Positions 29,067-51,629 of a stretch of DNA of 51,629 nt are shown here, in pieces (the first letter of the stretch is position 1; the number at the start of each line of letters is the position of its first letter). A model generated the notes under the pieces. That model did no database searches. It was given only the letters and a program-made list of their open reading frames with translations, and was not told the origin of the DNA. Source of the DNA: Calditrichota bacterium. Its GTDB lineage: Bacteria; Electryoneota; B3-LCP. The translations under genes were made by a program, and so were the position numbers. The stretch covers positions 1 through 51,629 of the forward strand of contig JAGVQJ010000140.1 in the NCBI GenBank assembly GCA_020051775.1, read 5' to 3'.

Positions 29067-30302
29067 ATGCTGAGAATTACACATTATTTTCTCGTTCCGA
29101 TTTTGGTCATTCCACTGCTAACTTGGGCGCAAATCCCTGATACTCAATGTTTGCGCTGTCATAGCCAGTCGAATCTCGCCAAAACGATGAACGGCAAAAC
29201 AACCTCGCTCTACGTGAACGTTGACTCGCTTAAAGCCTCGGTTCACGGTGAATTTCGATGTTTATCCTGCCATCTTGACCTGGCTCGAGAAAATCAATAT
29301 CCTCATTTGCTCCCCCCAAAACCGGTAGACTGCGCTTCTTGCCATTCCGCCGAAGGTCAGGAAATGGCGGTGTCGTCCCACTGGCATCTAACCCAAGCGG
29401 ACCGCACCGACGCCATGACCTGCGCCTCCTGCCACGGCGACCATGTTATCAAACCGGCTGCCGGTTCGGATTCTCCGACCAATCGCCGCAATATCGGAAA
29501 ACTCTGCCTTGCCTGCCATGCCGATCAGGAAGTCGTAATCGGATCCGGCGTCAAGGTCAGCGCCTACGAACGCAGCGTGCACGGCCTGGAGGTGTTTGTT
29601 AAAGGTGATACTGTCGCCGCCAACTGTGTTGACTGCCATGGAAACCATAAAGTGCTTCCTGCCAACAATCCTGCCTCTCCAGTATATAAACACACGGTTC
29701 CGCAAACCTGTGGTCAATGCCATAAAGAGGCCCGGATAAACTATCTGAATTCCATTCATGGCCAGGCGATGACGAAGGGAATATTGGAAGCACCGGTATG
29801 CACCGATTGCCACGGCGAGCATACCATTCAAACACCGGATTCCAGCCTGTCCAGCATTTCCCCCTCCAATGTTCCCAAAACGTGCGGTCACTGCCATGAA
29901 AATGTTATCTTGACCGAGAAATATGGCATCGCCTCCGAACGCTTCTCAACGTACCAAAGCAGTTACCACGGAGTAGCCAATCAATATGGACGCACAGTCG
30001 TTGCCAATTGTGCCTCTTGTCATGGGTTCCATGAGATTCTCCCTCCTTCAGATCCAGCGTCCACCGTTCATCCTGCCAATCTCGCCGCCACCTGCGGCCA
30101 TTGCCATCCCGATGCCAGCGCCAATTTCGCGAAAGGTAAAATGCATGTTCAGGCAACCTTGCAAAATTCGCCGGGTGTTTTCTTCGTGCGGCGCTTCTAT
30201 TACCTCTTCATTGGCGGATTGATGGTGTTGTTTATCCTCTATATGATCCTGGACTACTCTGGATTTATCCGCCGCCGTCGGGAGAGGAGATCATCGAAAT
30301 GA
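29067..30302 (+). CDS. multiheme c-type cytochrome (11 CxxCH), signal peptide, C-terminal TM anchor
   Basis: 11 CxxCH motifs counted. C-terminal hydrophobic helix then RRRRERR. Confidence 0.85.
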   Translation: MLRITHYFLVPILVIPLLTWAQIPDTQCLRCHSQSNLAKTMNGKTTSLYVNVDSLKASVHGEFRCLSCHLDLARENQYPHLLPPKPVDCASCHSAEGQEMAVSSHWHLTQADRTDAMTCASCHGDHVIKPAAGSDSPTNRRNIGKLCLACHADQEVVIGSGVKVSAYERSVHGLEVFVKGDTVAANCVDCHGNHKVLPANNPASPVYKHTVPQTCGQCHKEARINYLNSIHGQAMTKGILEAPVCTDCHGEHTIQTPDSSLSSISPSNVPKTCGHCHENVILTEKYGIASERFSTYQSSYHGVANQYGRTVVANCASCHGFHEILPPSDPASTVHPANLAATCGHCHPDASANFAKGKMHVQATLQNSPGVFFVRRFYYLFIGGLMVLFILYMILDYSGFIRRRRERRSSK

Positions 30303-30982
30303 AACCTGCCATCCTGAGATTCACGCTAACTGAGCGTGTGCAGCATATCATACTTCTGTCCAGTCTGATCATCCTGGTGCTGACGGGCCTCTCGTTAATG
30401 TTTCATAATACGGGTTGGGGACGTTTCATGATTTCGCTGGAAGGGGGGCTGGCGGGTCGCGGTTTGATTCACCGACTTGCTGCCCTGATGCTGATCGGTG
30501 TGTCGCTCTACCACTATTTTTATACTCTGCTCAGCAGGCACGGTCATAATTTACTGATGGATTTCCTTCCGGAAAAACGAGATTGGGGTAAATTCGTTAA
30601 GACATTCAAGTTTAACCTTGGCATGATAGACAGCCCACCGGAATGGAGTAAGTTTACATTTTTCCAGAAGCTGCAATACTTTGGCGTTGTGGCGGGGGTG
30701 ATTATAATGATCCTGACGGGTATTGTGCTTTGGCTTGGACCTCAGGCCATCGCTCTGATGCCTAAGTGGTTAGTGGATCTGACCCTGGTAGTGCATGGTT
30801 CTGAAGGATTGCTGATTTTCCTACTTCTACTTTTTTGGCATTTGTATAATGTTCATTTGGCGCCGGGTAATTTCCCCATGAATATGAGCTGGTTGACCGG
30901 TCGCATCAGCGTGGATGAACTTCGCAACCGTTATCCGTTAGAATATAAGCGCATGGTCGAAAGGAAGGAATTAGGCGAATGA
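30299..30982 (+). CDS. b-type cytochrome membrane subunit, FdnI/HydC/PhsC-like (PF01292-type)
   Basis: RFTLTERVQHIILLSSLIILVLTG matches the family N-terminal R..ER..HW...L..TG pattern. Conserved His pairs in TM helices. ATGA overlap with the upstream gene. Confidence 0.72.
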   Translation: MKPAILRFTLTERVQHIILLSSLIILVLTGLSLMFHNTGWGRFMISLEGGLAGRGLIHRLAALMLIGVSLYHYFYTLLSRHGHNLLMDFLPEKRDWGKFVKTFKFNLGMIDSPPEWSKFTFFQKLQYFGVVAGVIIMILTGIVLWLGPQAIALMPKWLVDLTLVVHGSEGLLIFLLLLFWHLYNVHLAPGNFPMNMSWLTGRISVDELRNRYPLEYKRMVERKELGE

Positions 30983-32019
30983 GAATCCTGATTTCCCTAT
31001 GCGCCGGCCTGATCAGCATATCTTTGGCGGTGGTGGCGGCGCCGCCGGTACAAAAATGCGAGTTATGCCACGCCAAACCCGGATTCCAGAAGAAATTAGA
31101 CAATGGACAGATTATCTCGCTGTATGTGCCACCGGATTCGTTAGCTCAATCTGTACATAGCAAACGCGAGTGCAATGAATGCCACCGGGACGTTAACGAA
31201 ATCCCGCACAAGCCGGGTTTGCAATGGGTGGATTGCACAGGTTGTCATTATATCGGAAATCTTGCCGGCGCCCCGGAGCTGCCGATTTACGAGCAATATC
31301 GTGAAAGTGTTCACGGGCGAGCCGCTTTGGCCGGCAATAAGAAAGCCCCGATTTGCCAGGATTGTCATGGAGCTCATAATGTCCAGAAATATCATGCAGA
31401 AGGCTCGCCCTTAAATCGCCAACTTCTACCGGCGAGCTGCGGGCGTTGTCATATCGAAGCGTATCGCCAGTTTGCCTCTTCCATTCACGGCAAACTTTTG
31501 TCGGAGGGTAATCCTGCTGTACCGACTTGTACGGACTGCCACGGTGAACATACCATAGAAAAACCCGAAGAACCAGGGTCGGCGGTTTTCTCAACGCGGA
31601 TTCCGGAAACCTGCGGTAAATGCCATGCGGCAGAAAATATTGTATCGAAGTATGGCGTGTCCATCGAACAGGTGGAAACCTACACCGAAAGCTTTCATGG
31701 TATTGCCACTACTTTTGGATCCAAAAAAGCAGCCAATTGCGCTTCTTGTCATGGGTCGCATGACATCCTGCCGGCTACTGACCAGGAATCTCGCATTTTC
31801 CCTGCCAACATCCCCAAAACTTGCGGGAAATGCCACCCGGAAGCTAATGCCAATTGGGCGCGAGGCAAGATCCACGTGAATGCTTCCAATAAAGATGCGG
31901 GTATTATCTATTACGTGGCTGCTTTCTTCAAATGGCTAACAATTTCCACATTAGTTGGTCTGGTCATCAACATTATCTTGGATCTGCGCCGCAGATTGAT
32001 GAAAAATAAGAAGAGCTGA
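30979..32019 (+). CDS. multiheme c-type cytochrome (9 CxxCH), paralog of 29067..30302, C-terminal TM anchor
   Basis: 9 CxxCH. Shared blocks with gene 29067 (SLYV..DSL..SVH, CTDCHGEHTI, ..KYG...E...Y..S.HG.A). ATGA overlap. Confidence 0.85.
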   Translation: MRILISLCAGLISISLAVVAAPPVQKCELCHAKPGFQKKLDNGQIISLYVPPDSLAQSVHSKRECNECHRDVNEIPHKPGLQWVDCTGCHYIGNLAGAPELPIYEQYRESVHGRAALAGNKKAPICQDCHGAHNVQKYHAEGSPLNRQLLPASCGRCHIEAYRQFASSIHGKLLSEGNPAVPTCTDCHGEHTIEKPEEPGSAVFSTRIPETCGKCHAAENIVSKYGVSIEQVETYTESFHGIATTFGSKKAANCASCHGSHDILPATDQESRIFPANIPKTCGKCHPEANANWARGKIHVNASNKDAGIIYYVAAFFKWLTISTLVGLVINIILDLRRRLMKNKKS

Positions 32020-32051
32020 CCTGAAACAGTAGAAAACACAATTCGATCTTG

Positions 32052-32975
32052 ATGGAAATAACTGACCCCAAGCTCAAAGAAATATTATTGGCCGAATTGC
32101 GCCAACGATTGAAAACCCGCGGTCTCTCCGACTCCGATTTAACCGAAGAACAGCTTGGACAAATGTTAATAGAGCTGTCTGCTGGTCTGGAACGGAAGGC
32201 TGACCAAATTGCTGAGGCAATCAAGCCACCTACCCCTGAAGCGCCAGCGCCGGAGAAACTGTCTAAAGTGAAAGAAGAGCAGTTTCTGCGACTCTCTTTA
32301 AATTTGCGTTTGCAGCATTTCGTCATGCTCTCTTCCATAGTCATCTTGATCATCACCGGTTTACCCCTAAAATTTCACGACGCCGCCATTTCGCACGTGA
32401 TCATTACTTTTTTTGGCGGTATCACGAACTCGGCTTGGATTCATCGTTTCGGCGCCACAGGGTTGATTGGTGTGGGTCTTTTCCATTTGCTCTACACCGT
32501 TTTTACTGTTACCGGACGAAGAGATTTTATGCTGTTATTGCCCAAACCGCAGGATTTGAAGGATTACGTAAAGCAAATAAAATATTTCCTGGGAATGACC
32601 GAGGAAAAGGCCAAGTTTGGCCGGTTCAGCTATATCGAGAAATTCGATTATTGGGCGGTATATTGGGGTATGATCATCATGATCGGATCAGGATTAATGC
32701 TCTGGTTCGAGAGTTTTGTCATGAGTTTTCTTCCCAAATTCATACTGGACATTGCCAAGGAAGCACACAGCGATGAGGCCATGTTGGCGACTTTGGCCAT
32801 CGTTATCTGGCATTTCTATAACGTGCATCTGAATCCCCATAAATTCCCTATGTCAAAAACGTGGATCACTGGTAAAATATCCAAGCATGAAATGATGGAC
32901 GAGCACTCGTTGGAATATGAAGAGATCTTGAAAACGCGTACTGGCGATGAAGCTGTAAAAGGAGGTCGCTCGTGA
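32052..32975 (+). CDS. b-type cytochrome membrane subunit (paralog of 30299..30982) with ~85-aa N-terminal hydrophilic extension
   Basis: [22 protein letters not shown] and [15 protein letters not shown] parallel gene 30299 (WHLYNVHLAPGNFPM). ATG at 32052 (TTG at 32049). Confidence 0.7.
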
Positions 32976-35014
32976 AAGATCTTTTCCACGGTCTTCACCG
33001 AGGGGCCAGAATTTATTTCCGAGAACTACTGGCTCTGGGCGCTGTACTGCTTTTCATACTAATTCTCACTAATCTCGCATGGTTTGGACTATCTCAAAAT
33101 CCCAAAACCTGTCTGACCTGCCATTACATAAGGCCATACTACAACCAATGGGCACATGGAAATCATCGGGACGTTAAGTGTACTGAATGTCACGGCGAGC
33201 GGAAATTTATGATGGGATCTTGGGCGTTCAGTTATATTACCGCCAGTTTTACTGATAAGCCGATCGCCAGAGTCAAGGATTCCGCCTGTTTGAAGTGTCA
33301 TGAACACCAGAGCCTGGATACGGCTCAACCGTTTGAACAAAACATCACCTTCAACCATAAGCTGCATCTGGAAAATCCGGTGCGTGGTGTGCAACTCCAC
33401 TGCATGACCTGCCATAACCACCGCACGCCCGGACAGTATCTGCAGGTGGATGACCGCACTTGTTTCCTGTGCCATTTTAAAGGCGCCGAGAAGGGCCAAT
33501 CCAAAACCGGATGTCAGACCTGTCATGGCAATCCCAAGCAATCGGTCGAACACCAAGGCTTCATGTTCAATCATCAGGCCTACATTGAAGTAGGCGTGAA
33601 CTGCGGACAATGTCACACTGATATTATCAGCGGCAACGCCGCAGTTCCCCAGGAAGCCTGCCAAACTTGCCACGCTCCTCATACTGAAAGGTACAAGGAT
33701 TTCTCTTTGGTGCATGAGGTTCATGTGCACCGCGAAGAGGTTAATTGTTTCCGTTGCCATGATGAGATCCAGCACGGCAAGTTCGGTATGATCAGCTCGC
33801 TGGAAGTTCGTTGCGAAAGTTGTCATGCTAAGCTACACACGCCGGAAAAGCAGTTATACATCGGATCTGGCGGATTAGGAATAGAAGACGAACCGTCACG
33901 CATGTTTCTGGCGCAAGTGTCTTGCGACGGCTGCCATATCGGTAAAGTGGGGTTAGGGGAGGAGAAATTCGGCGCTGCGGCCTTAAGAACGAAGCAGGAA
34001 TCCTGTCTGAAATGCCACGGGAAAGGTTACGATTTGATGCTCGATGATTGGCTGGCTCATACCCCGGAAATGCTAAGGGCATTGGAACCGTCTTTAAGGC
34101 AGACAGAAGCCGCACTAAATCGCAGCAGAGTGGATGATTCGACTCGTGCAGCAATGCAGGAAGCTCGCTACAATTACGATTTTGTAGCCGACGGAAAAGC
34201 TGCGCATAATATCTTTTACGCGGTGGATTTATTGAAGCGGTCGGCGGATAGAATGAACCAGGTTCGGATGAATATGGGTATGCCGCGCCTCGAATCGGCG
34301 CTCGGACCGATGCTGAGTACACCGGACGGTATTTGTAACACTTTGTGCCATGGACGCATCGCCAGGCCGGAAGTTATGACCTATGAAAAGACGAATTTCC
34401 CACATGCATCACATTCCCAGGACCTGGACCTGCCTTGCACCAAGTGCCATGATCCTGATAAACATCGCCAGAAATTCATTAAGCGAGATGGTTGCAAAGA
34501 ATGCCACCATCAGGATGTACCCATCGCTTGTGCGTCTTGCCATTGGCGGCAGAATGATCTTTACCGGGGTGAGAGCCAGGAATTGGGATTGAAAGAATCG
34601 CCGGACGTCATGTTCACAGCCGGAGTGGACTGCCACGGCTGTCATGACCTTTCCGCCTCTCATTCTTTGGAAATCGTGGCCGGTAAATGCGGTGGATGTC
34701 ATGATCCCAGCTACAAGCAGATGCTGACCGAATGGGCTGCTGAAGTACAGCAGGGGGCACAGCAGCTTGCAACAGGGCTTGATTCCGCGCGCACGGAATT
34801 GGAAGAGGCACACCGAGTGGGCCGTTCAGTATTCGATGAAACCCTCGCTGTGAATGAAATCAACCGCCGCAGCCTCTTTATGAAAGAATCACAACCACTG
34901 CACAACTATGCCGCAGCCATAACAGAATACTCGACACTGCGCGAGAAACTGGCCGAAGTTCGTGCACGCCTAAAACCGGGAAAAGCAGCAGTGAGGCAAG
35001 CAGTGGAGAAATAA
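32972..35014 (+). CDS. large multiheme c-type cytochrome (17 CxxCH plus one CxxxCH), N-terminal TM anchor, NapC/NrfH-like beginning
   Basis: AGGAGG RBS then GTG overlapping the upstream TGA. TM helix then CLTCH..CTECH. Heme motifs spread over the whole 680 aa. CNTLCH variant. Confidence 0.85.
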
Positions 35015-35377: not shown

Positions 35378-36748
35378 TTATCCCACTTCATTATATTCCC
35401 TAACTCTGAAATTAGCTCCTATTGATAGGGCCATCTGACGTGCAGCCTCGACATCCACTCCGGGATAAGTCACAACCGATAGCGTCGTTTCCGGCAAGAA
35501 CTGTACGCATTCCCGAGCGAAATCAAGGACGGCCTGGAAAGCGGCTTCGCCGAAATCACTATGCACTAGAGCTTGATAGAGATCGCTGCGGTGTTCATTC
35601 AGGCTGATGGATACGGAATCTATCAATCCCGTCATCTCCGGCACGATGTTGCGTTCGTTGATTAAATTACCCTGACCATTGGTATCCAATCGCACCGTCA
35701 CTCCTTGAGACTTCAACCAGCGGGCGACTTGCAGCAAGGTCTCGAAGCGCATCGTAGGTTCGCCGAAACCACAGAAGACCGCTTCATCATATCGAGTCGG
35801 GTCCCCCAACGCAGTGATGACTTGTTCAGCGGTTGGCTCTTCTGATGCCCTCATACCGATATAATGACCCTTCACCACCGGTTGAATTGATCGGGGACAG
35901 AATACGCAGGCATTGGTACATCGCGAAGTTAAAGCAATATAGATTGAATTGCGGATCGGATAAACGAACGTGTTCTGGGGCGCTTCACCAATTCCAAAAA
36001 GCCTGTGGGTGTTAAAGCGGGTGATGCGGGCGACGTCTTCGATGCTAAGCCGTTTGATCTCGGCGATCTTAGCTGCAACCAAAGGCACAAACGCAGGTTC
36101 ATTGCGTTTGCCTCGGTTTGGGACCGGCGTCATGAAAGGACAATCGGTTTCCAGCAGCAGTCGTTCCACCGGAGTAGCCTTGACGATAGGGAGGAGGGTG
36201 CTGTTTTTATAGGTGATGTTTCCGGTATAGGAGATCATGAAATCCAGATCCAGCACTTGTTTAAGTTCCTCGAGGGTCCCGGAGAAACAGTGAAACACAC
36301 CGCGTACTTTTCCCCGGCCCTCTTGGTGTATTATGGCCACAGTGTCAGAGAAAGCTTCACGACAATGGACGATCAACGGTTTATCCAGGTCAACAGCCAG
36401 GTTGACCATCCGAGCGAAGACCGAGCGTTGATTTTCGCGCGAAGAACGATGACGGTAGTAATCCAGCCCGGCTTCACCCAGCGCCACAACTTTGGGATTA
36501 CTGGAAAAATTGCGGATGTGTTGCTCTAAATCAACACCGGCTTTGTCAGCTTCGTGGGGATGCCAACCGACGGAGGCATAGACCTGCTCATGCTGGGTAG
36601 CAATCTCCAAGGCAGCGTGGTTGGTAGTTGCATCAATACCGATGGTGATAATATTCCTGATCTTAGCCAGCCGGGCATTGGATAACACTGATTCCAAGTT
36701 CGGTCTTAGTTCAGGAAAGTCAAGGTGAGCGTGAGTATCTATAAACAT
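35378..36748 (-). CDS. TatD-family metal-dependent hydrolase fused to a C-terminal radical SAM domain
   Basis: N-terminal MFIDTHAHLDFPE and GLDYY..HCREAF TatD motifs. C-terminal half carries CTNACVFCP (CX3CX2C) and GFGEP, typical of radical SAM. Confidence 0.75.
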   Translation of the reverse strand: MFIDTHAHLDFPELRPNLESVLSNARLAKIRNIITIGIDATTNHAALEIATQHEQVYASVGWHPHEADKAGVDLEQHIRNFSSNPKVVALGEAGLDYYRHRSSRENQRSVFARMVNLAVDLDKPLIVHCREAFSDTVAIIHQEGRGKVRGVFHCFSGTLEELKQVLDLDFMISYTGNITYKNSTLLPIVKATPVERLLLETDCPFMTPVPNRGKRNEPAFVPLVAAKIAEIKRLSIEDVARITRFNTHRLFGIGEAPQNTFVYPIRNSIYIALTSRCTNACVFCPRSIQPVVKGHYIGMRASEEPTAEQVITALGDPTRYDEAVFCGFGEPTMRFETLLQVARWLKSQGVTVRLDTNGQGNLINERNIVPEMTGLIDSVSISLNEHRSDLYQALVHSDFGEAAFQAVLDFARECVQFLPETTLSVVTYPGVDVEAARQMALSIGANFRVREYNEVG

Positions 36749-42702: not shown

Positions 42703-44175
42703 TCAGTGGCGGGAACTTCGTAATTCATTTTGATGAATGGAGACAATTAATGCAAAAACCGGGATCATGGGAAGATGATACCTGCCTTCGCTTATAAAGG
42801 CCATGTAAATGAGAGTCAAATACAAGGTCGGTCCCATCAATAGCCAAAATCGAGATGTAAATCCCTCTTCTTTAAAAAACATAATCACGGCGAGGAAAAA
42901 CCCAAGAAGAAGCATCGAATAATAGCCCTCCGTTCCGGCGATGAGGATCATCATCACCACCGGGGAAATTTTATCATAAGTTCCACCCGTGGCATAAGAT
43001 ACGGCTTTACTGTCTTTTGAGTACAAAAAGATTAGCTTTTTGGGCCATTTGGAGATGGCTTGAATTGGATGCGCGAAAACGAAGGACATCCCTTGCTGAT
43101 ATCCGTAGCGATCCTTTTCAGTTTCTGTGAGAGATTCCAATTTGTCTCTTGTTTCCGGCGAGATGAAGGAATTCCAATCAATGAATCCTCCACTCGTGAG
43201 AGAATTGTTCCCCATCCAGAAATGCATGCCGCCGTTGGTCGAAGAAAGGGTAAACGCTCCAAAGGCTCGATAATTCCTTATCTGCCAAGGCAGCAGCACT
43301 AATTCACCAACTAAAAAAATTAACAAAAATTGAACTGCGGCTGTGCGGAGCGAATCGCGCTTCATAATCCGGTAAATAAATAATACGAACGGCAAAAGCA
43401 TGGCAACCGATCTGATTAATACCGCCAAACCGAACACCAGACCAATGAAGATATCACCGGTTATCCCCTCGCGCTTCAGGGCTAAAAACATGACCAATAT
43501 GATGCTAAACGAGAAAAACGGATCGGATAAGATGGGGAGAGAATAGAGGGATATGGAGGGGGTTAATATCAGTATCAAGGCGGTTCTTCGGGCGGTTATT
43601 GGTCCAAACAGATGCTTAGCCATCCCGTAAGCCAATAGTATCATTCCCAATAATAGCAAAGAATTAATTGCCTGTCCAACGAAAATGGACGGACCCGTGA
43701 AACGGTACGCGATAGCCAAAAGAACTGGATATCCTATCGGCCACCAAGCAGTAGGATCGCCATCCGCTTCCAAAATTGGCTCAAAACGGGAAAAGTGCTC
43801 AGCGTACTGATAATAATTATGATCGTCATAAGTGAACAAATCGTAGGGGAGAAAATAAATCAAGGCGAGACTCAGCGCCAGTTTGAAAATGATTATAGTG
43901 ACGAGAAAATGTCTTTCACGCCAACGGTAAAGACCTAATATATTTCGTTCGCATAAATAAAGAAATATCGAAACCAATAAAAATCCCAACCCAGTGATGA
44001 TAACCCCCCAATGGCGATCCTTTAGAGCCTGCGCAATGGGGGCGTCAATGCTGCCATCAGAGGAAAGTTGCGAAGCCATCACCGGCAGGATCGGGGCACC
44101 TCCCATGATCTGGAAAAGACCGAGGCAGAGAGTGCTTATTCCAGCGATCGCGAGAAGGATGATGAATGGTTTCAT
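42703..44175 (-). CDS. GT-C fold membrane glycosyltransferase (family 39/83-like)
   Basis: Multi-TM. Periplasmic loop YDDHNYYQYAEHF..WWPIGYPVLL. Paralog of 44195..45661. AAGGAA RBS before ATG 44175. Confidence 0.65.
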   Translation of the reverse strand: MKPFIILLAIAGISTLCLGLFQIMGGAPILPVMASQLSSDGSIDAPIAQALKDRHWGVIITGLGFLLVSIFLYLCERNILGLYRWRERHFLVTIIIFKLALSLALIYFLPYDLFTYDDHNYYQYAEHFSRFEPILEADGDPTAWWPIGYPVLLAIAYRFTGPSIFVGQAINSLLLLGMILLAYGMAKHLFGPITARRTALILILTPSISLYSLPILSDPFFSFSIILVMFLALKREGITGDIFIGLVFGLAVLIRSVAMLLPFVLFIYRIMKRDSLRTAAVQFLLIFLVGELVLLPWQIRNYRAFGAFTLSSTNGGMHFWMGNNSLTSGGFIDWNSFISPETRDKLESLTETEKDRYGYQQGMSFVFAHPIQAISKWPKKLIFLYSKDSKAVSYATGGTYDKISPVVMMILIAGTEGYYSMLLLGFFLAVIMFFKEEGFTSRFWLLMGPTLYLTLIYMAFISEGRYHLPMIPVFALIVSIHQNELRSSRH

Positions 44176-44194
44176 GGGTGGTTCCTTGGAGGCT

Positions 44195-45661
44195 TCAAAT
44201 ATGTTCGTTAGAGGAAACCAGGTGTTGTACTGCCAACCAGGCGAAAATCGGCATGAGTGGCATGTGATAGCGGCCATCGGCCACGAACGGTAAATGAATA
44301 CCGATAAAGTATATGACAGTACCCGCCAACAACCACAGCCGTGGTGAACATTTTTCTTTTTTTATAAAGGCCGGGAGTGCAATTAAAAATGCCAGCCCCA
44401 ATGTGTAGTAGTAACCTTCAGTGATTACGATGAGCGCCATCAATACCGCCGGGCTAACTTGTTCTGAACTCCACATAAATCCATACGTTATGCATTTACT
44501 GTCTTTATAAAAAAGGTGAATGAACTTTTTAATCCAGGATAAAACTGTATTTGCCGGATTATGCAGCATGTAGGAAATAGCTTGCTTGGTGGCATAGCTG
44601 TCGCGTTGCTTTTCATTTAAGGCAGCTAACATCCATTTTAATGTATCGGGATGAACATAAGTGGCCTCATCAATGAATCCGCCCGTGGCCATAGGGTTGT
44701 TTCCACGCCACAGATTGTAGCCTCCATGATTAGAGACCATGACGAACTCGTCAAAGGTGCGATAGTTTCGAATTTGCCAGGGGAGAAGAATGCTTTCAGC
44801 AATTAGATAGATAATGGCTATCCGCCCCAAGACCAACTTCAAGTTTTTATTCTGAAGGTACCAGAAAAGCGCAATAATAACCGGGTAAAACACCAGTATC
44901 GGTCGCGTCAGCAAAGCCGCACCAAAAAGTATTCCAAGAGCAATGGTATTGATAATTGAGTGTCTTCTCACCACAAAATAAGCCATGACGGCAAAATAGA
45001 ATGCGAAAGGAATGTCAGCGATGGGGACGAAGGAATATAGAACCTGAGAGGGTAGGAATGCCAACAGTAATGCCGCACGGCGTGCTATCCTGTCATTGAA
45101 CAGGCGAGCGCCAATCAAGTAAGTGAACAAGGAAATAGCAGTAAGCATAAGAATATTTAAATACTGAGCTGCGAGGATGCTTGGACCAACAATTTTGAAT
45201 AGAAGCGATAACAGTAATGGGTACCCAATCGGAAAGTAAGCGGTAGGATGACCATCTTTGGTGGCTACCTCCAATCCCTTATAAAGATTTCTGGCTTGAT
45301 CCAAGTACCAGATAGAATCGGCAGCCTCTTCATATTGATAAGAGTGGATATAAATGAGACTGCCGATAACTTGAAAGCTCAGAATCAAAATAAGAAATCT
45401 GGATACTTTCCAATCGAAGATGCCGATTTTCCCACGCTCAACCAGATACAAGAAGGCTGTCATCATTCCGAGGAAGAATGCGGCTATCATCAAGCCAGGT
45501 AAAAGTCCTTCGAAGGCACGGAGGGCTAAACTGTCCAATACTCCATCAGAAGTGGCTATCTGGGCAAGTGATTCAGGTTGAAACGGCTGGAAGGTGATGG
45601 CTAAGGCTGCCAGGAGACACATTCCGCTCGCAGCCGCCAATAAGTAAATGAAACGCTTCAT
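44195..45661 (-). CDS. GT-C fold membrane glycosyltransferase (paralog)
   Basis: YEEAADSIWYLDQARNLYKG..YFPIGYPLLLSLLF parallels the neighbouring gene. Confidence 0.65.
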   Translation of the reverse strand: MKRFIYLLAAASGMCLLAALAITFQPFQPESLAQIATSDGVLDSLALRAFEGLLPGLMIAAFFLGMMTAFLYLVERGKIGIFDWKVSRFLILILSFQVIGSLIYIHSYQYEEAADSIWYLDQARNLYKGLEVATKDGHPTAYFPIGYPLLLSLLFKIVGPSILAAQYLNILMLTAISLFTYLIGARLFNDRIARRAALLLAFLPSQVLYSFVPIADIPFAFYFAVMAYFVVRRHSIINTIALGILFGAALLTRPILVFYPVIIALFWYLQNKNLKLVLGRIAIIYLIAESILLPWQIRNYRTFDEFVMVSNHGGYNLWRGNNPMATGGFIDEATYVHPDTLKWMLAALNEKQRDSYATKQAISYMLHNPANTVLSWIKKFIHLFYKDSKCITYGFMWSSEQVSPAVLMALIVITEGYYYTLGLAFLIALPAFIKKEKCSPRLWLLAGTVIYFIGIHLPFVADGRYHMPLMPIFAWLAVQHLVSSNEHI

Positions 45662-45797: not shown

Positions 45798-45826
45798 TTG
45801 ACAAATCACTGAATATTTGTTATTTT
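45798..45826 (+). promoter_or_regulatory. sigma70-like promoter upstream of the BMC-H pair
   Basis: TTGACA (45798-45803), 17-nt spacer, TATTTT (45821-45826). AGGAGA RBS at 45853. ATG at 45863. Confidence 0.55.
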
Positions 45827-45862: not shown

Positions 45863-46174
45863 ATGCCCGGTGACACCATGCGCACTCTGGAAGCCTTGGG
45901 GATGATCGAAACCCGAGGACTGGTCGCCGCCATTGAAGCGGCCGATGCGATGGTCAAAGCCGCCAAAGTCCAGCTTGTGGGGAAAGAAAAAATCGGCGGT
46001 GGCTATGTGACAGTATTCGTTCGCGGCGATGTCGGCGCGGTGAAAGCAGCCACAGATGCCGGAGCCACAGCCGCCGAAAAGGTCGGCGAACTGGTGTCTG
46101 TCCATGTCATCCCCAGGCCGCATCAGGAAGTGGAGATCATAGTCCCCACACGCGAACACCCCAACCTGGAATAG
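45863..46174 (+). CDS. bacterial microcompartment shell protein, BMC-H (PduA/EutM/CcmK type)
   Basis: [57 protein letters not shown] is near-identical in pattern to PduA. Confidence 0.92.
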
Positions 46175-46195
46175 GCCTTAACATAGGTGAATTAA

Positions 46196-46690
46196 ATGGC
46201 CAAATTGCAGGACAAGCCGATCCTGACAGAACGCGCTCTCGGTATGATTGAGACGACCGGTCTGGTCGGAGCTATCGAAGCCGCTGATGCTATGCTCAAA
46301 GCCGCCAGAGTACGATTGCTGGATAAAGAGCTTAGCAGCGGGGGGCTGGTAGTTATTCAGGTGCTGGGAGAGGTGGGAGCAGTACGCTCCGCCGTTGATG
46401 CCGGGGCCAAAGCCGCCGAAAGGGTAGGACAGTTGGTTGCCACGCACATCATCCCCCGCCCGCATGACGAAGTTGAAGACCGGCTGCTTTACTCGGAGGG
46501 TGGTTCCAATAATTTGCAAAAGCACACGGGCAAAAACGAGGGACCAGATCGTCTTGAAAGTTTGACAGTGACTGAATTGCGCGCTTTGGCAAGAAAAACC
46601 ACCGGATTTCCTTTATCGGGTCGCGACATCTCCAAGGCGGGTCGGGATCTGCTATTAACAGAACTGCGCAGGTTTTTTCCACCTGCCTGA
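46196..46690 (+). CDS. BMC-H shell protein with ~75-aa C-terminal extension carrying a Rho_N/SAP-like helical motif
   Basis: BMC domain ([25 protein letters not shown]...THIIPRPH). Tail ..LESLTVTELRALARKTTGFPLSGRDISKAGRDLLLTEL.. matches the L..L.V.ELR.LA...G.......K..LI..I pattern of the Rho N-terminal domain. Confidence 0.85.
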   Translation: MAKLQDKPILTERALGMIETTGLVGAIEAADAMLKAARVRLLDKELSSGGLVVIQVLGEVGAVRSAVDAGAKAAERVGQLVATHIIPRPHDEVEDRLLYSEGGSNNLQKHTGKNEGPDRLESLTVTELRALARKTTGFPLSGRDISKAGRDLLLTELRRFFPPA

Positions 46691-46710: not shown

Positions 46711-47100
46711 ATGTTGCGTCCGCGATTCCGGTTCTGGGCGACCCTTAGACCTTATTCTCGCGTGATCCTTCTGTGGGCGATCATTGGCTTGATGATCGCC
46801 CTCGGCATTTGGTTGGGGGTGGATAAAAAGGTCATTGGTCTTGTGCTGGTAGTATTCGGAATCGCCACCCAGGCCTTTTCCAGTCTGCTGCTGGTCTTGG
46901 GCGCAATACCGATCGCAGGTCCGTTGATCGTAAAGGTCTTTACGCTGCCCTTTTTCTGGATTCTGAATGGTTTGGGGTACTTCCTTTCCATTTTTGCGAT
47001 CAGGCGAGGTTATTCCAAAGACGTATTCAGTTACCGCATTTTCACAATTGTGTTTCTGGTCGGACTCGTTTTTGGGTTTATTCTTGGTAAAATACTCTGA
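46711..47100 (+). CDS. small integral membrane protein (4 TM), hypothetical
   Basis: 129 aa, four hydrophobic helices. Begins 21 nt after the second BMC-H gene. Confidence 0.5.
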   Translation: MLRPRFRFWATLRPYSRVILLWAIIGLMIALGIWLGVDKKVIGLVLVVFGIATQAFSSLLLVLGAIPIAGPLIVKVFTLPFFWILNGLGYFLSIFAIRRGYSKDVFSYRIFTIVFLVGLVFGFILGKIL

Positions 47101-47110
47101 CAAAAGGCGA

Positions 47111-49504
47111 ATGGTCATGCGCAATACGACCTTAATAGCCAGCCTGGCAATGGCGGTTTCCCTGCTACCTGGGATGGCTTTAAGCTATCTCAAGCCCACT
47201 CTGAGCACAGCCACGCCACCGACCGCTTCGCAAGTATTCAAACCTGCCTGGGTTGATGATGACACCGTCATTTTTCTGGCCGATTTTGAAACTACCGGCG
47301 GAATGAATGCCTGGACCTCTTCGGACCTAACCAATCCTGGTCCCACCTGGCACCGCGACGTGTACAACGCTTATAATAACCACTCCTGGTGGGTGGGCAA
47401 GCAAACCCTAGCCGGCTATGATAACAATTGGCTACAGTACCTGGTGACGGATACTTTCAGCATATCCGGAGTTACCAATCCGCGTCTCACTTGTAAAGTT
47501 TATTGGGCAACCGAACCACCCCTTGGGCCTTTTCCAACCGGATACGATGGTTGGGATGGGTGCAACGTTTGGATATGGAATGGTTTTATCTGGCAACTAT
47601 TGATTCCCGATTTCCCAGCTTACAATACGGCCAGCCAATACGGCTTCGGATGGTTGTGGGGGATGGGATTGGGGATTCCCGCCTGGGCGGGAACTTCCGA
47701 CTGGGTTACGGCCCAATTCGATCTGTCGTCATACACTTTCCTGCCCAATGTGCGATTGCGCATAGCTTTTTGCTCTGATCCTGCCAACTGTACTGCCGAA
47801 AACACTACTTGGACCGGAATCTTCGTGGATGACATCCTGGTCACGGATGGATCCACAATATATCTTTCCGACGACGCCGAAGGCAATCCATACCCTGGGG
47901 AATCCACTTTCGCAACCGGTGATCCCTATGGCAATTATTGGGTTTTAACCACCCCGCAGGCTCATAGCCCTACGCATAGCTGGAATTGCGATGATCGTTT
48001 TTTCTTGTCGGATGCCTTGATTTCTCCCACGGTAAACATCCCCGCCGGTATGAGCACTATTTTAAGCTATTGGGTGTATTGTGACATGCCGGATTTCGAC
48101 GGCGACCACGATGATTTTTTGGATGATTACTACTATATTGAAGTGTTGCCGACCAGCAGCTCCACCTGGATACCGATAGCGTATGATTATGCCCGCAACG
48201 GATCGCAGTTACAGTGGGTGGAAAGAATTGATGGTGTTTGGAATAGTTTGCCTGTACCCATTTTGAATCTCACACCCTGGGCGGGACAATCGGTTAAACT
48301 GCGTTTCCGCACGGTAACTGATGGCGATAACAACGGCGGCATCGGTAACGGTCTGTACATTGATGATGTGACCCTGATTAGCCACATTTTGCCCAATAAT
48401 GACGTGGGCGCTTACAAACTGGTGATCCCGTTCCCCACGTATCAGGGGCAAAGCCAGGTCGCCGGATCCGTCGAATTGATCAATTACGGCGTGTTGAATC
48501 AACCGCAAGTGCCGGCCTCTTGGTCAGTTAATGGACTTACTACCCCGTTCATTCCCTGGGCGTCCATCAATGCCGGAGATACTTTAATCAGAAATTTTGC
48601 CTGGACTCCGCCTGCGTCTGGTTCCTTTGATTTCAAAGCTTTCACACACATGTCCGGCGACCAGAATCAGACAAATGACTCCAGTCATGCAGGGGTAGTC
48701 GAAGTTACACCAACGGGATTCTTCGAACTCGGCTACGATCATCGCCAACTATCTTACTTGCCGGAAACAGACCTGCTGGCCTTCAATTTTGGACAAGGAG
48801 GCGGCGCGATGGTCCATTTTACCCCTGAAACTGACGGTCTCGCCGGCACATTATATGGCAGCACCCTGAAAGTTATGTTTCGTACGGCAGGTGATTTCAC
48901 TCTGCACTTTTTCGAGAACGGGGAATTCGGCCAGCCTGGAAATGAAGTCCACAGCCGACCGATCACGCTCTCCGAAACCCAAATATTTCCCAATTGGGCT
49001 AATATTGATATTTCAGACGTTGCCTTCCTGCAAGGTGGGCACCCCGATTTCTGGGTTTGGCTGGAGGTCACTGCGCAGAATTTCACTCCCCATATCACCG
49101 GATATCTTGAAGACGCCTTTTCCTACGGGCATTTCTTCTTCCACGATAATCAAGGTACGGAGCAAACCATCATCAATTTCAATATTCGTGCGATAATGAC
49201 GGGCACAGCCGCGGTTGATCCCAATTTAGGTCTACAGCCGGCAAGCATCATGCTTCTGGCTGGGTATCCCAATCCTTTCAACAGTATGGTTCACGTTTCA
49301 TTCACTCTACCGGCGCCCGTTGATGTGCAGTTAGAGATTCTCGATCTAATGGGGCGGAGAGTTGCCACACTTGTGAACGGAAGAGTGCCCGTCGGCGAAC
49401 AAGCCGCCATCTGGGATGCGGGTGATTTTCCCTCAGGCAATTATTGGATAAGGTTAATTGCGGGTTCTCGCATAATGACGGAAAGAATCGTATTACTTAA
49501 GTGA
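47111..49504 (+). CDS. large secreted protein with T9SS C-terminal domain; shares N-terminal domain with the next gene
   Basis: ATG 47111 after AAAGGCGA. Signal peptide MVMRNTTLIASLAMAVS. YDGWDGCNVW block. C-terminal LLAGYPNPFNS...RIVLLK. Confidence 0.75.
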   Translation: MVMRNTTLIASLAMAVSLLPGMALSYLKPTLSTATPPTASQVFKPAWVDDDTVIFLADFETTGGMNAWTSSDLTNPGPTWHRDVYNAYNNHSWWVGKQTLAGYDNNWLQYLVTDTFSISGVTNPRLTCKVYWATEPPLGPFPTGYDGWDGCNVWIWNGFIWQLLIPDFPAYNTASQYGFGWLWGMGLGIPAWAGTSDWVTAQFDLSSYTFLPNVRLRIAFCSDPANCTAENTTWTGIFVDDILVTDGSTIYLSDDAEGNPYPGESTFATGDPYGNYWVLTTPQAHSPTHSWNCDDRFFLSDALISPTVNIPAGMSTILSYWVYCDMPDFDGDHDDFLDDYYYIEVLPTSSSTWIPIAYDYARNGSQLQWVERIDGVWNSLPVPILNLTPWAGQSVKLRFRTVTDGDNNGGIGNGLYIDDVTLISHILPNNDVGAYKLVIPFPTYQGQSQVAGSVELINYGVLNQPQVPASWSVNGLTTPFIPWASINAGDTLIRNFAWTPPASGSFDFKAFTHMSGDQNQTNDSSHAGVVEVTPTGFFELGYDHRQLSYLPETDLLAFNFGQGGGAMVHFTPETDGLAGTLYGSTLKVMFRTAGDFTLHFFENGEFGQPGNEVHSRPITLSETQIFPNWANIDISDVAFLQGGHPDFWVWLEVTAQNFTPHITGYLEDAFSYGHFFFHDNQGTEQTIINFNIRAIMTGTAAVDPNLGLQPASIMLLAGYPNPFNSMVHVSFTLPAPVDVQLEILDLMGRRVATLVNGRVPVGEQAAIWDAGDFPSGNYWIRLIAGSRIMTERIVLLK

Positions 49505-49582: not shown

Positions 49583-51629
49583 ATGAGTACCAGAAATTAT
49601 TGGATTCCGCTGTGCTTGATCTTGATTGCCGTTACAACCTCAAATGGCAGCGAACGCCATCAAGTCTTGATGCCCAGAACCGAAGCGGTGCCGATGCCGG
49701 GAGAGGCGCCAAGTTATGCAGTAGATGAAACTGACAGCGTTATTCTCTTTGAGAATTTCGAAACAGGAGCGCCGGGGTGGACTTTTGTAGATCTTACCGA
49801 CCTGCCAATTTATTGGCATGTTGACGATTATAATCACTATGAAAGCGGCGGTAGCCTTCTATCCTGGTGGTCGGGTGATACTGCGATCATGGGCTACGAC
49901 AACCACACTCTTCAGTATCTTGAGAGTCCTACCCTGAATTTAACCGGTGCGGTCAATCCTACGCTAACCTTCAATCTCTTCCATTCCGTCGAAACGACAC
50001 CTGGTGCAACACCGCCTTACGACGGATGGGACGCTTGCAATGTATGGGTTTCCACCAACAACGGATCAACCTGGGCGGTACTACCCAGTCCAACTCCTGC
50101 TTATAACATGACCAGCTCCTATGCCTTCGGTTATGAATTCGGCATGGGACCCGGTATTGCAGGATGGGGAGGATATTCGGGCGGCGTATCACCCGGAGCC
50201 TGGGTTAACGCTTCTTTCTCACTAAACAGCTATATCTCCAGCCAGGTGAAAATCCGCTTTGCCATGTGTTCCGATCCGGCCTACAGCACACTTCAGGACT
50301 CAACCCTGCGTGGGATGTTCGTAGACAACATCCTGGTTCAAGCCGGCACCACGGCCTATCTGCGGAACAATGCTGAAGGGATCGCTATCCCCAGCGAAAT
50401 GGTCCCTACTTTGCCTTTGCCGCCGGTGGGCAGCTTTTGGCACGTGGAAACCCTTACCTCGCCATTCCCCACACCGCCATCGCCCACGCACGGAGCTCGC
50501 ATGTCCAACGGTTTGGGCATATCGTCGCAGTATCCGCCCATGACCTATTGTGCTTTAGTCTCACCGATGATTGATTTGACCGGCATCGGATTCGGCATGG
50601 GTCAAGTTTATGCTGACTTTTTTCACACCGGGCAGATCAACTTGAACGACCCGGATCCCTTCCCGGATCTGGATATCTGGACCATAGAAGTCAAACCTGA
50701 CACCGGCGTAACCTGGTACAACTGGAACGATCCGTTCAATCAAGGTGCTCAGCACTTCGTGTTTTCCAGTTTACCAACCACCTGGGATTCATTGGGTCTC
50801 TGGCAGGGTTTGCAGGAGGGTGTGCCTCTTACAGCCTATATTGGCATGCGAATTCAGGTGCGTGTCATTTTCCAAGCTGACATTGATCAATTTGCCGGTT
50901 ATGGCATGTTGTTGGATAACTTCAGCGTGGATTTCATCGGGGGTTTGTCCCATGATGTTGCCGCCCGCAAGTTGAAAGTACCCATGCCCACTTCCACCTA
51001 CTTCGATACCATCTATGCTTCGGTGGAACTCCACAACCTGGGTCAGAATCTGGAATCATCGGTTCCGGCGTTCTGGCGGATCAATAGCGGTGTAGCCAAC
51101 CCCATGATCCCCTGGGCCTCGATCCCGCCGGATGGAATGGTCATGAAGGCTATCAACTGGGTCGTACCGGAGACGCCAGGATCGTTCTTCTTCGATGCCT
51201 ACACAAGGTTGGGTTCCGACCTGGATCTTTCCAACGACACCGCCAAAGCCGGATCCGTAGAACTTACGCCGGATTCCCTCTTTGAGTTCGGCTACGATAA
51301 CCGTCAGTATGGCTACGAAAGCACCTACTACTTCAATTTTGAACCAGGTGAAGGCGCTTACATTCGTTACACTCCGACGGCGGATCGGGTAAACTTTAAC
51401 GTATATGGGCATTACTTGCGAGCCAGGTTTATGGATACCGGATCCATCAGAATCCACCTTTACCAGGCTGGAGCCGATCCCACTCAACCAGGCTCGCCGA
51501 TCACGCAATGGGATGCCATGGTTACTCAAGTTTCTCCCAGTTGGCAGCAGTTCGATATTTGGAATGTGCCCGAACTGCAAGGGACCCACGCAGATTTCTG
51601 GGTATTCTATGAAATGATTGACACTTCCA
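49583..51629 (+). CDS. paralogous large secreted protein (5' part; open to window end)
   Basis: AAGGAGGA RBS then ATG 49583. Signal peptide. YDGWDACNVW and FEFGYDNRQ blocks parallel 47111..49504. No stop before 51629. Confidence 0.7.
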   Translation, partial: MSTRNYWIPLCLILIAVTTSNGSERHQVLMPRTEAVPMPGEAPSYAVDETDSVILFENFETGAPGWTFVDLTDLPIYWHVDDYNHYESGGSLLSWWSGDTAIMGYDNHTLQYLESPTLNLTGAVNPTLTFNLFHSVETTPGATPPYDGWDACNVWVSTNNGSTWAVLPSPTPAYNMTSSYAFGYEFGMGPGIAGWGGYSGGVSPGAWVNASFSLNSYISSQVKIRFAMCSDPAYSTLQDSTLRGMFVDNILVQAGTTAYLRNNAEGIAIPSEMVPTLPLPPVGSFWHVETLTSPFPTPPSPTHGARMSNGLGISSQYPPMTYCALVSPMIDLTGIGFGMGQVYADFFHTGQINLNDPDPFPDLDIWTIEVKPDTGVTWYNWNDPFNQGAQHFVFSSLPTTWDSLGLWQGLQEGVPLTAYIGMRIQVRVIFQADIDQFAGYGMLLDNFSVDFIGGLSHDVAARKLKVPMPTSTYFDTIYASVELHNLGQNLESSVPAFWRINSGVANPMIPWASIPPDGMVMKAINWVVPETPGSFFFDAYTRLGSDLDLSNDTAKAGSVELTPDSLFEFGYDNRQYGYESTYYFNFEPGEGAYIRYTPTADRVNFNVYGHYLRARFMDTGSIRIHLYQAGADPTQPGSPITQWDAMVTQVSPSWQQFDIWNVPELQGTHADFWVFYEMIDTS

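Follow-up and report, generated by a model that had tools for sequence, protein, structure and literature searches.

A Rho_N/SAP-like C-terminal domain on BMC-H shell proteins: a candidate positioning module in a Calditrichota bacterium and related microcompartment loci

Introduction

Why should a shell protein of a bacterial microcompartment (BMC) carry a second, folded domain at its C-terminus? The question is raised by a gene at positions 46196..46690 (plus strand; 164 amino acids and a stop codon) of contig JAGVQJ010000140.1 from a Calditrichota bacterium, whose 51,629 nucleotides are together referred to below as the window. A first-pass annotation, made from the letters of the window, had read the product as a BMC-H shell protein fused to a Rho_N/SAP-like tail. 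The analysis reported here assigns to it, with high confidence, an architecture of BMC-H domain, linker and tail, and places the tail in the helix-extended-helix fold class; a role in tethering the organelle is proposed more tentatively. To our knowledge, the positioning and inheritance of metabolosomes is a largely open subject beyond carboxysomes (McdAB) and the recent observations on EutK and PduK.

Results

Domain architecture of the tailed BMC-H protein

The product of 46196..46690 is a canonical BMC-H shell protein with a single, non-permuted domain. Residues 14-89 matched PF00936 (E 2.6e-26; 91.8 bits against a gathering cut-off of 24.5) in canonical order, unbroken over profile positions 1-75 of 75. 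The AlphaFold2 (AF2) model, a monomer built with the homologue alignment, showed the BMC-H fold over residues ~11-98 (46226..46489, plus strand) with a predicted local distance difference test score (pLDDT) above 90; its strands span residues 13-20, 40-46, 52-59 and 80-86 and its helices residues 23-36, 60-77 and 91-97. The standard edge motifs of BMC-H proteins are KAAN and (P/A)RPH (PMC8217296). At the inter-hexamer interface positions, as read from the sequence, K35-A-A-R38 and P87-R-P-H90 were found; the Lys and the RPH are invariant across 33 homologues, and the fourth residue of the first motif is R or K, not N. An AGGTGA Shine-Dalgarno-like motif is located a few bases 5' of the ATG.

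The BMC domain ends at residue 89, leaving 75 amino acids, and a plain BMC-H is encoded upstream at 45863..46174, so that the earlier description of a second BMC-H with a tail of about 75 residues was confirmed. The position given for the feature held for the tail but not for its start, since 46420 lies about 20 codons within the BMC domain and the extension begins at nucleotide 46463. A database search returned ~50 full-length homologues of 149-170 amino acids with 52-78% identity, whose records carry the names Zixibacteria and candidate division LCP-89. In an alignment of close relatives comprising 33 full-length homologues, the conserved BMC domain is followed by ~20-25 columns without conservation and then by a sharply conserved block. 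Accordingly, two parts were delimited: a variable, disordered linker defined by the AF2 model and the alignment (residues ~99-117, ~19 amino acids; 46490..46546, plus strand), and a conserved C-terminal Rho_N/SAP-like helix-extended-helix domain (residues 118-160, ~43 amino acids; 46547..46675, plus strand). The segment quoted in the first-pass annotation, LESLTVTELRALARKTTGFPLSGRDISKAGRDLLLTELRRF, was located at residues 120-160 (nucleotides 46553-46675). Ten tail positions are invariant in the 33 homologues (V125, L128, R129, A132, R133, G142, R143, I145, S146 and L153), and the conservation of the tail, judged from the alignment, is far beyond chance.

In the full-length AF2 model the tail consists of four helices (residues 118-122, 125-134, 142-147 and 150-160) with pLDDT ~90, and the same four helices were obtained when the tail was modelled alone (mean pLDDT 84.5). 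The pLDDT of linker residues 100-115 was below 50, the predicted template modelling score (pTM) was 0.51, and the tail was not docked on the BMC domain.

Relationship of the tail to Rho_N and SAP domains

When 74 diverse tails were compared with Pfam, Rho_N was matched by 31 (best E 3.3e-6), SAP by 20, HeH by 4 and FANC_SAP by 2, and no unrelated family appeared in more than four. The gathering score of Rho_N, 24.9, was exceeded by two of ten individually scored tails (27.4 and 26.2 bits, covering 36-40 of 43 positions), and both of these match the window-derived tail profile at E ~1e-11 to 1e-12. The gathering score of SAP was reached by none of the 74 tails, the best SAP E-value being 7.8e-4. 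Of the 33 close tails, 13 had a SAP match and 7 a Rho_N match, none of which reached the threshold. In the 74 diverse tails, three arginine positions show complete or nearly complete conservation. An hhalign comparison with residues 1-53 of E. coli Rho placed the tail in the same register with a five-residue insertion (E 0.03). In a Foldseek search of the PDB with the 53-residue tail, the tightest superpositions were with Rho (TM 0.62, 1.8 A), TAF1 and the SAP domain of 3'hExo.

Several results weigh against this relationship. Every Foldseek E-value was above 1, the search having no statistical power at 53 residues. The 46196..46690 protein gave no match to Pfam Rho_N at E<=10, and its tail scored 13.3-14.1 bits against SAP (E 0.04-0.06), below the cut-off of 23.9. 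No Rho, SAP or LEM chain was retrieved when PDB sequences were searched with the tail and with tail profiles (phmmer, hmmsearch); the best matches were to the Vps4/SKD1 lid, N-WASP and KaiA, at non-significant E-values of 0.4-1.3. An identity as an AAA+ lid hairpin was rejected, as the resemblance is weak and superficial.

These observations allow another reading, in which the tail is a generic small helical bundle that came to resemble Rho_N and SAP by convergence, without common ancestry or function. The tail of 46196..46690 lies under every Pfam cut-off, the profile searches of PDB sequences were empty, a weak likeness to AAA+ lid hairpins exists, and the extra short helix (GR-D/E-IS) is missing from canonical Rho_N and SAP domains. 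Such convergence is regarded as improbable. The profile check against PF07498 proposed in the first-pass annotation succeeded for the two homologous tails above the cut-off and failed for the tail of 46196..46690 itself. Neither a lack of Rho_N and SAP matches nor a disordered or non-helical tail was found; the helical model at pLDDT ~90 and the matches of homologous tails to Rho_N (31/74) and SAP (20/74) support the Rho_N/SAP-like reading. The tail was accordingly assigned to the helix-extended-helix class (Rho_N/SAP/LEM), with Rho_N as its nearest family, and within this class it forms a divergent subfamily distinguished by one additional short helix and by invariant arginines of its own.

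Occurrence of the tail across microcompartment loci

A tail-only profile was scored against 1.84 billion protein representatives, and 725 cluster representatives were matched at E<=1e-3, of which 182 at E<=1e-10. Architectures were counted in the best 149 of the 725 matches. The BMC domain lies N-terminal to the tail in 117 of the 149; the remaining 32 are tail-only open reading frames (ORFs) of 42-241 amino acids, which are probably fragments or miscalls. No other recognised domain was found beside the tail among the best 149, and in all 149 the tail ends 0-16 residues from the C-terminus. Among these best matches, the tail domain thus occurs only on BMC-H proteins, and it is abundant rather than rare. 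The linker of the wider family extends from ~20 to ~240 amino acids (maximum 238, median ~90) and is low in complexity and acidic (D and E make up 23%); the core of the tail is basic (median net charge +3). A separate homologue search with the tail profile gave 22 proteins, nearly all of them tail-only ORFs (42-110 amino acids), none annotated as Rho_N.

Short ORFs that encode the tail and hardly anything else were also observed on three contigs: P0275 (57 amino acids, 326-kb contig), P0182 (77 amino acids, 141-kb contig) and P0247 (77 amino acids, 14-kb contig). Because they are located on long contigs, they cannot all be contig-end fragments; some may derive from genes that were split or frameshifted, or the domain may also exist on its own.

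A genome scan run with 8 closer tails detected the tail in WOR-3, Bacteroidota, Rhodothermia, Clostridiales, Anaerovoracaceae and other metagenome-assembled genomes (MAGs), and 20 related loci were cross-annotated. In the window, and likewise in 18 of the 20 related loci, the gene directly 5' of the tailed BMC-H encodes a plain BMC-H (92-104 amino acids as called in the source records). An aldehyde dehydrogenase gene lies directly 3' of the tailed gene in L013, L014 and L017-L019; in L013, L014 and L018 it follows the plain/tailed pair, and in L013 and L014 PTAC comes next. In two Firmicutes loci, a tailed BMC-H of 286-317 amino acids is encoded within a complete glycyl-radical-enzyme (GRE) locus that also specifies the GRE, its activase, PduV, an EutJ-like protein, BMC-P, a PduS-like protein, BMC-T, EutQ, aldehyde dehydrogenase, PTAC and BMC-H. 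On the L007 contig, the shell pair is 5 kb from genes for BMC-P, DeoC, a phosphomutase (PGM) and a nucleoside phosphorylase. Loci with scattered shell genes are assigned to FRAG types in the locus descriptions of Sutter et al. 2021 (Nat Commun 12:3809). One and the same tail domain is therefore found across FRAG-like, aldehyde dehydrogenase/PTAC and GRE loci.

In L013 (7751-10824), L014 (9391-12464) and L018 (4219-6844), which come from WOR-3 and two other MAGs, the plain BMC-H, tailed BMC-H and aldehyde dehydrogenase genes form a tightly packed, partly overlapping operon, a BMC core different from the orphan pair of the window.

Proposed function of the tail

The first-pass annotation had left it between the concave and the convex face of the hexamer from which the tail would project. 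In all solved shells, the termini of BMC-H proteins lie on the outside, which is the concave face (PMC6787980), so the concave alternative is the one retained. The protein can be described as a BMC-H tile with intact edge motifs, to which a small basic helix-extended-helix domain is joined by a disordered linker. Because BMC-H termini are external, the linker is disordered and AF2 did not dock the tail on the tile, we infer that each minor hexamer would present six flexibly tethered, mobile tail modules to the cytosol. The modules may bind nucleic acid, either DNA of the nucleoid or RNA; a protein ligand is also conceivable. The net charge of +3 and the three conserved arginines are indirect hints of nucleic-acid binding. 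Such tethering would allow the organelles to be distributed and inherited rather than clumped, by analogy with EutK and PduK in the Eut and Pdu compartments. The reading that the protein forms a minor shell hexamer which tethers or positions the organelle via its tail modules is given a rough probability of 0.4.

The tail could instead act on the shell or on the cargo, by folding onto the tiles, gating the pore, cross-linking shells or serving as a lumenal cargo scaffold in the manner of a reversed encapsulation peptide. An aldehyde dehydrogenase gene often stands directly after the tailed gene, and the long charged linkers could span several tiles. In addition, the account of FRAG genomes in Sutter et al. 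2021 gives them as without detectable encapsulation peptides, because of which another route of cargo recruitment would be needed there. However, a lumenal or pore-directed tail conflicts with the external position of BMC-H termini in the solved shells (PMC6787980), and AF2 leaves the tail undocked (linker pLDDT <50, pTM 0.51). A linker that varies from ~20 to ~240 amino acids is also hard to square with a fixed intramolecular contact. Encapsulation peptides are single, short amphipathic helices that cargo enzymes carry on a poorly conserved linker, whereas the tail is a compact four-helix domain of strongly conserved sequence on a shell protein. A role on shell or cargo is accordingly judged unlikely.

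Neighbourhood of the shell gene pair

The plain BMC-H gene of the window (45863..46174, plus strand) encodes 103 amino acids that matched PF00936 at E 2.4e-30 and scored 135.6 bits against the NCBIfam EutM equivalog (cut-off 133). A weak sigma-70-like promoter match was found at 45798..45826 (plus strand; TTGACA-17-TATTTT, 10/12, with TG before the second hexamer), but the promoter scan returned 2 such sites against 1.4 expected by chance. No terminator-like site was detected between 45500 and 47400. Since there is none between the BMC genes and the next ORF, the two BMC genes are probably co-transcribed.

The pair is flanked by two minus-strand PMT_2 glycosyltransferase genes, a gene for a hydrophobic protein of 129 amino acids and genes for InhA-like proteins secreted by the type IX secretion system (T9SS), with multihaem cytochromes farther off. 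Synteny of this block was seen in one LCP-89 MAG, one MAG of Zixibacteria and several metagenome contigs (up to 366 kb), in the order epimerases, PMT_2 (most contigs), plain BMC-H, tailed BMC-H, a protein of 128-130 amino acids (most) and T9SS proteins. The flanks are conserved as a block, in a pattern that looks like lineage inheritance and not functional linkage.

One feature of this neighbourhood speaks against a tethering role: the shell pair has neither a partner of the ParA/McdA type nor a DNA-related gene linked to it. No BMC-P, BMC-T, aldehyde dehydrogenase, PTAC, signature or typical cargo enzyme is encoded in the 51.6-kb window, which is one contig of the genome. It could be argued that the orphan pair builds no closed organelle but sheets or tubes, possibly associated with the membrane via the 129-amino-acid protein, the role of the tail being unrelated to an organelle. 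In keeping with this, BMC-P, BMC-T and cargo enzymes are likewise absent within 10 kb in five syntenic relatives, and the pair is surrounded by genes for glycosyltransferases, a membrane protein and proteins secreted by the T9SS. On the other hand, the flanks appear to be inherited with the lineage, and the L007 contig carries the same pair 5 kb from BMC-P, DeoC, PGM and nucleoside phosphorylase. The FRAG entries of Sutter et al. 2021 also describe a BMC-P triplet elsewhere in the genomes with scattered shell genes, and in FRAG3, which includes an LCP-89 member, the aldolase DeoC is encoded beside a BMC-P. A pair without an organelle is therefore considered very unlikely.

The 129-amino-acid protein (46711..47100, plus strand) is encoded 20 nucleotides 3' of the tailed BMC-H gene; it has about four transmembrane-like segments and matched nothing in Pfam or NCBIfam. 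Homologues (E 1e-41 to 1e-46) directly follow the tailed BMC-H in eight loci of the LCP-89-like lineage (L001-L004, L008 and L010-L012), and none is found at the tailed BMC-H of the Zixibacteria locus (L005 and L009, which are the same contig), L007 or L013-L020. It is a lineage-specific neighbour that may share the transcript, and its membership of the system is uncertain. As a universal partner of the tail it was ruled out because of this lineage restriction.

The question of a partner bears on a further alternative, that the tail is a protein-protein adaptor and not a nucleic-acid binder, recruiting to the shell surface a specific partner from cytosol or membrane, such as a chaperone, a positioning ATPase or GTPase, or, in this lineage, the adjacent membrane protein. 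Helix-extended-helix domains that bind proteins exist, such as LEM with BAF and the SAP-like domain of MANF/CDNF with BiP. However, no partner gene is conserved across the tail-bearing locus types, and the 129-amino-acid protein is absent from the loci of Zixibacteria, WOR-3, Bacteroidota and Firmicutes. The sequence matches, moreover, are to Rho_N and SAP, the nucleic-acid-binding branches of the class, and not to LEM. An adaptor function seems somewhat unlikely on these grounds, and tethering through nucleic acid is preferred.

Other features of the window

The two PMT_2-family glycosyltransferase ORFs are arranged in tandem (42703-44277 and 44195-45661, both minus strand) with a listed overlap of 83 nucleotides; the overlap would disappear if, as is probable, the internal Met of MKPFIILL is the start of the downstream gene. 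On the other side of the shell pair, 46967-49504 and 49600-51629 (both plus strand) encode tandem InhA-like, MAM-domain paralogues of ~800 amino acids with a T9SS C-terminal sorting domain. The second was missing from the ORF lists because the gene runs off the end of the window; it matched relatives by tblastn with E-values down to 0, and the view of the last 2 kb as ORF-free was thus rejected. Rfam, tRNA and tandem-repeat scans made beside this question were empty. One to three InhA-like/T9SS copies are found 3' of the BMC pair in the syntenic relatives.

Farther upstream, 29067-35014 (plus strand) is a five-gene cluster in which multihaem c-type cytochromes (Cytochrome_C7, c3 and MtrC/MtrF-like) alternate with cytochrome b561-type membrane subunits, which suggests an extracellular or periplasmic electron-transfer module. 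The 456-amino-acid protein encoded at 35378-36748 (minus strand) is a full TatD-type DNase (E 3e-80) fused to a C-terminal radical SAM domain (E 7e-11), and the same fusion was called in the related contigs L001 and L005.

Discussion

A single recognisable surface domain in hundreds of shell proteins of different BMC types provides a concrete target for the study of metabolosome positioning. It also helps to annotate the FRAG loci of uncultured phyla, whose functions are cryptic, and the site of the tail would be a natural fusion point on a BMC-H tile, displayed externally if the termini are oriented as in the solved shells. SAP domains bind DNA, and the SAP motif (PF02037; Ku70, PIAS, SAF-A, Tho1) is mainly a eukaryotic, chromatin-associated DNA-binding motif. 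In its widest form, the proposal would be that the tail is a widespread, previously unrecognised nucleoid (or RNA) anchor on long acidic tethers, which positions or partitions FRAG, SPU-like, aldehyde dehydrogenase/PTAC and GRM3A microcompartments across FCB-group candidate phyla and Firmicutes. Such an anchor would parallel EutK without being homologous to it, and would be an alternative to the McdAB system of carboxysomes that does not depend on ParA; this wider proposal is possible but doubtful.

Extended BMC-H proteins as such have been described. The supplement of Sutter et al. 2021 notes them in its entries on FRAG3, FRAG1 and GRM3A loci, where the domain is not named, and the passage of the main text on shell-protein phylogeny reports that they cluster on the tree. 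In the GRM3A entry, the BMC-H of the H_driedblood type has a long charged extension. The FRAG3 entry gives two BMC-H proteins, one standard and one with a C-terminal extension of ~50 residues, remote from the enzyme genes. The same pair of standard and extended BMC-H, distant from enzymes, is present at 45863-46690, while the BMC-P triplet and DeoC that define FRAG3 lie outside what one window contig can show. The closest named relatives are LCP-89 and Zixibacteria MAGs. A shell-only arrangement of this kind is the usual pattern of FRAG3-like, fragmented loci in these two groups and in lineages related to them. The statement in the first-pass annotation that the architecture is not commonly described consequently holds for the domain assignment only, extended BMC-H proteins being abundant; literature searches turned up no paper that connects shell proteins of BMCs with Rho_N, SAP or HeH.

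Compared with Rho_N (PF07498), the tail contains a five-residue insertion that forms the extra short helix G-R-D/E-I-S, and has its own invariant motif, L-R-x-x-A-R...G-R-x-I-S. Elsewhere, Rho_N is joined to the OB-fold and ATPase of Rho or linked to an RNase E partner, as in RHON1, whereas here it is carried by a shell tile. The C-terminal Rho-N motif of plant RHON1, 40 amino acids in length, binds RNA alone and follows an acidic stretch (PMC3458557).

Close parallels are EutK and PduK. EutK of the E. coli and Salmonella eut systems is a minor shell component that, like the protein described here, combines one BMC-H domain with a C-terminal domain that is small, basic and ordered and for which nucleic-acid binding is suspected. 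In a eutK deletion, Eut BMCs are static at the poles, and the basic C-terminal domain of EutK has been proposed to bind nucleotides and to act like ParB (PMC12487888). That domain, however, is a helix-turn-helix (PF16365) not homologous to the tail, and the linker of the present family is variable and often very long. The 46196..46690 protein gave no match to EutK_C PF16365 at E<=10, and against the NCBIfam EutK equivalog NF012010 it scored 73.9 bits (cut-off 218) over profile positions 3-84 of 166, which cover the BMC part only. PduK, which affects the subcellular location of Pdu BMCs (PMC12487888), is likewise a minor shell component, a BMC-H with a C-terminal extension of ~70 amino acids. 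The PduK extension is described as disordered, with a tetracysteine motif as a possible binding site for an Fe-S cluster (PMC6325248); in contrast, residues 90-164 of the present protein contain no cysteine and a helical domain is predicted with confidence. Because it is not homologous to the C-terminal domain of EutK and has none of the cysteines of PduK, the tail would be an analogue and not a member of these two families. The protein is thus a fresh case of the recognised class of extended BMC-H proteins, to which the present analysis makes a modest addition, namely the domain assignment and its recurrence across BMC locus types.
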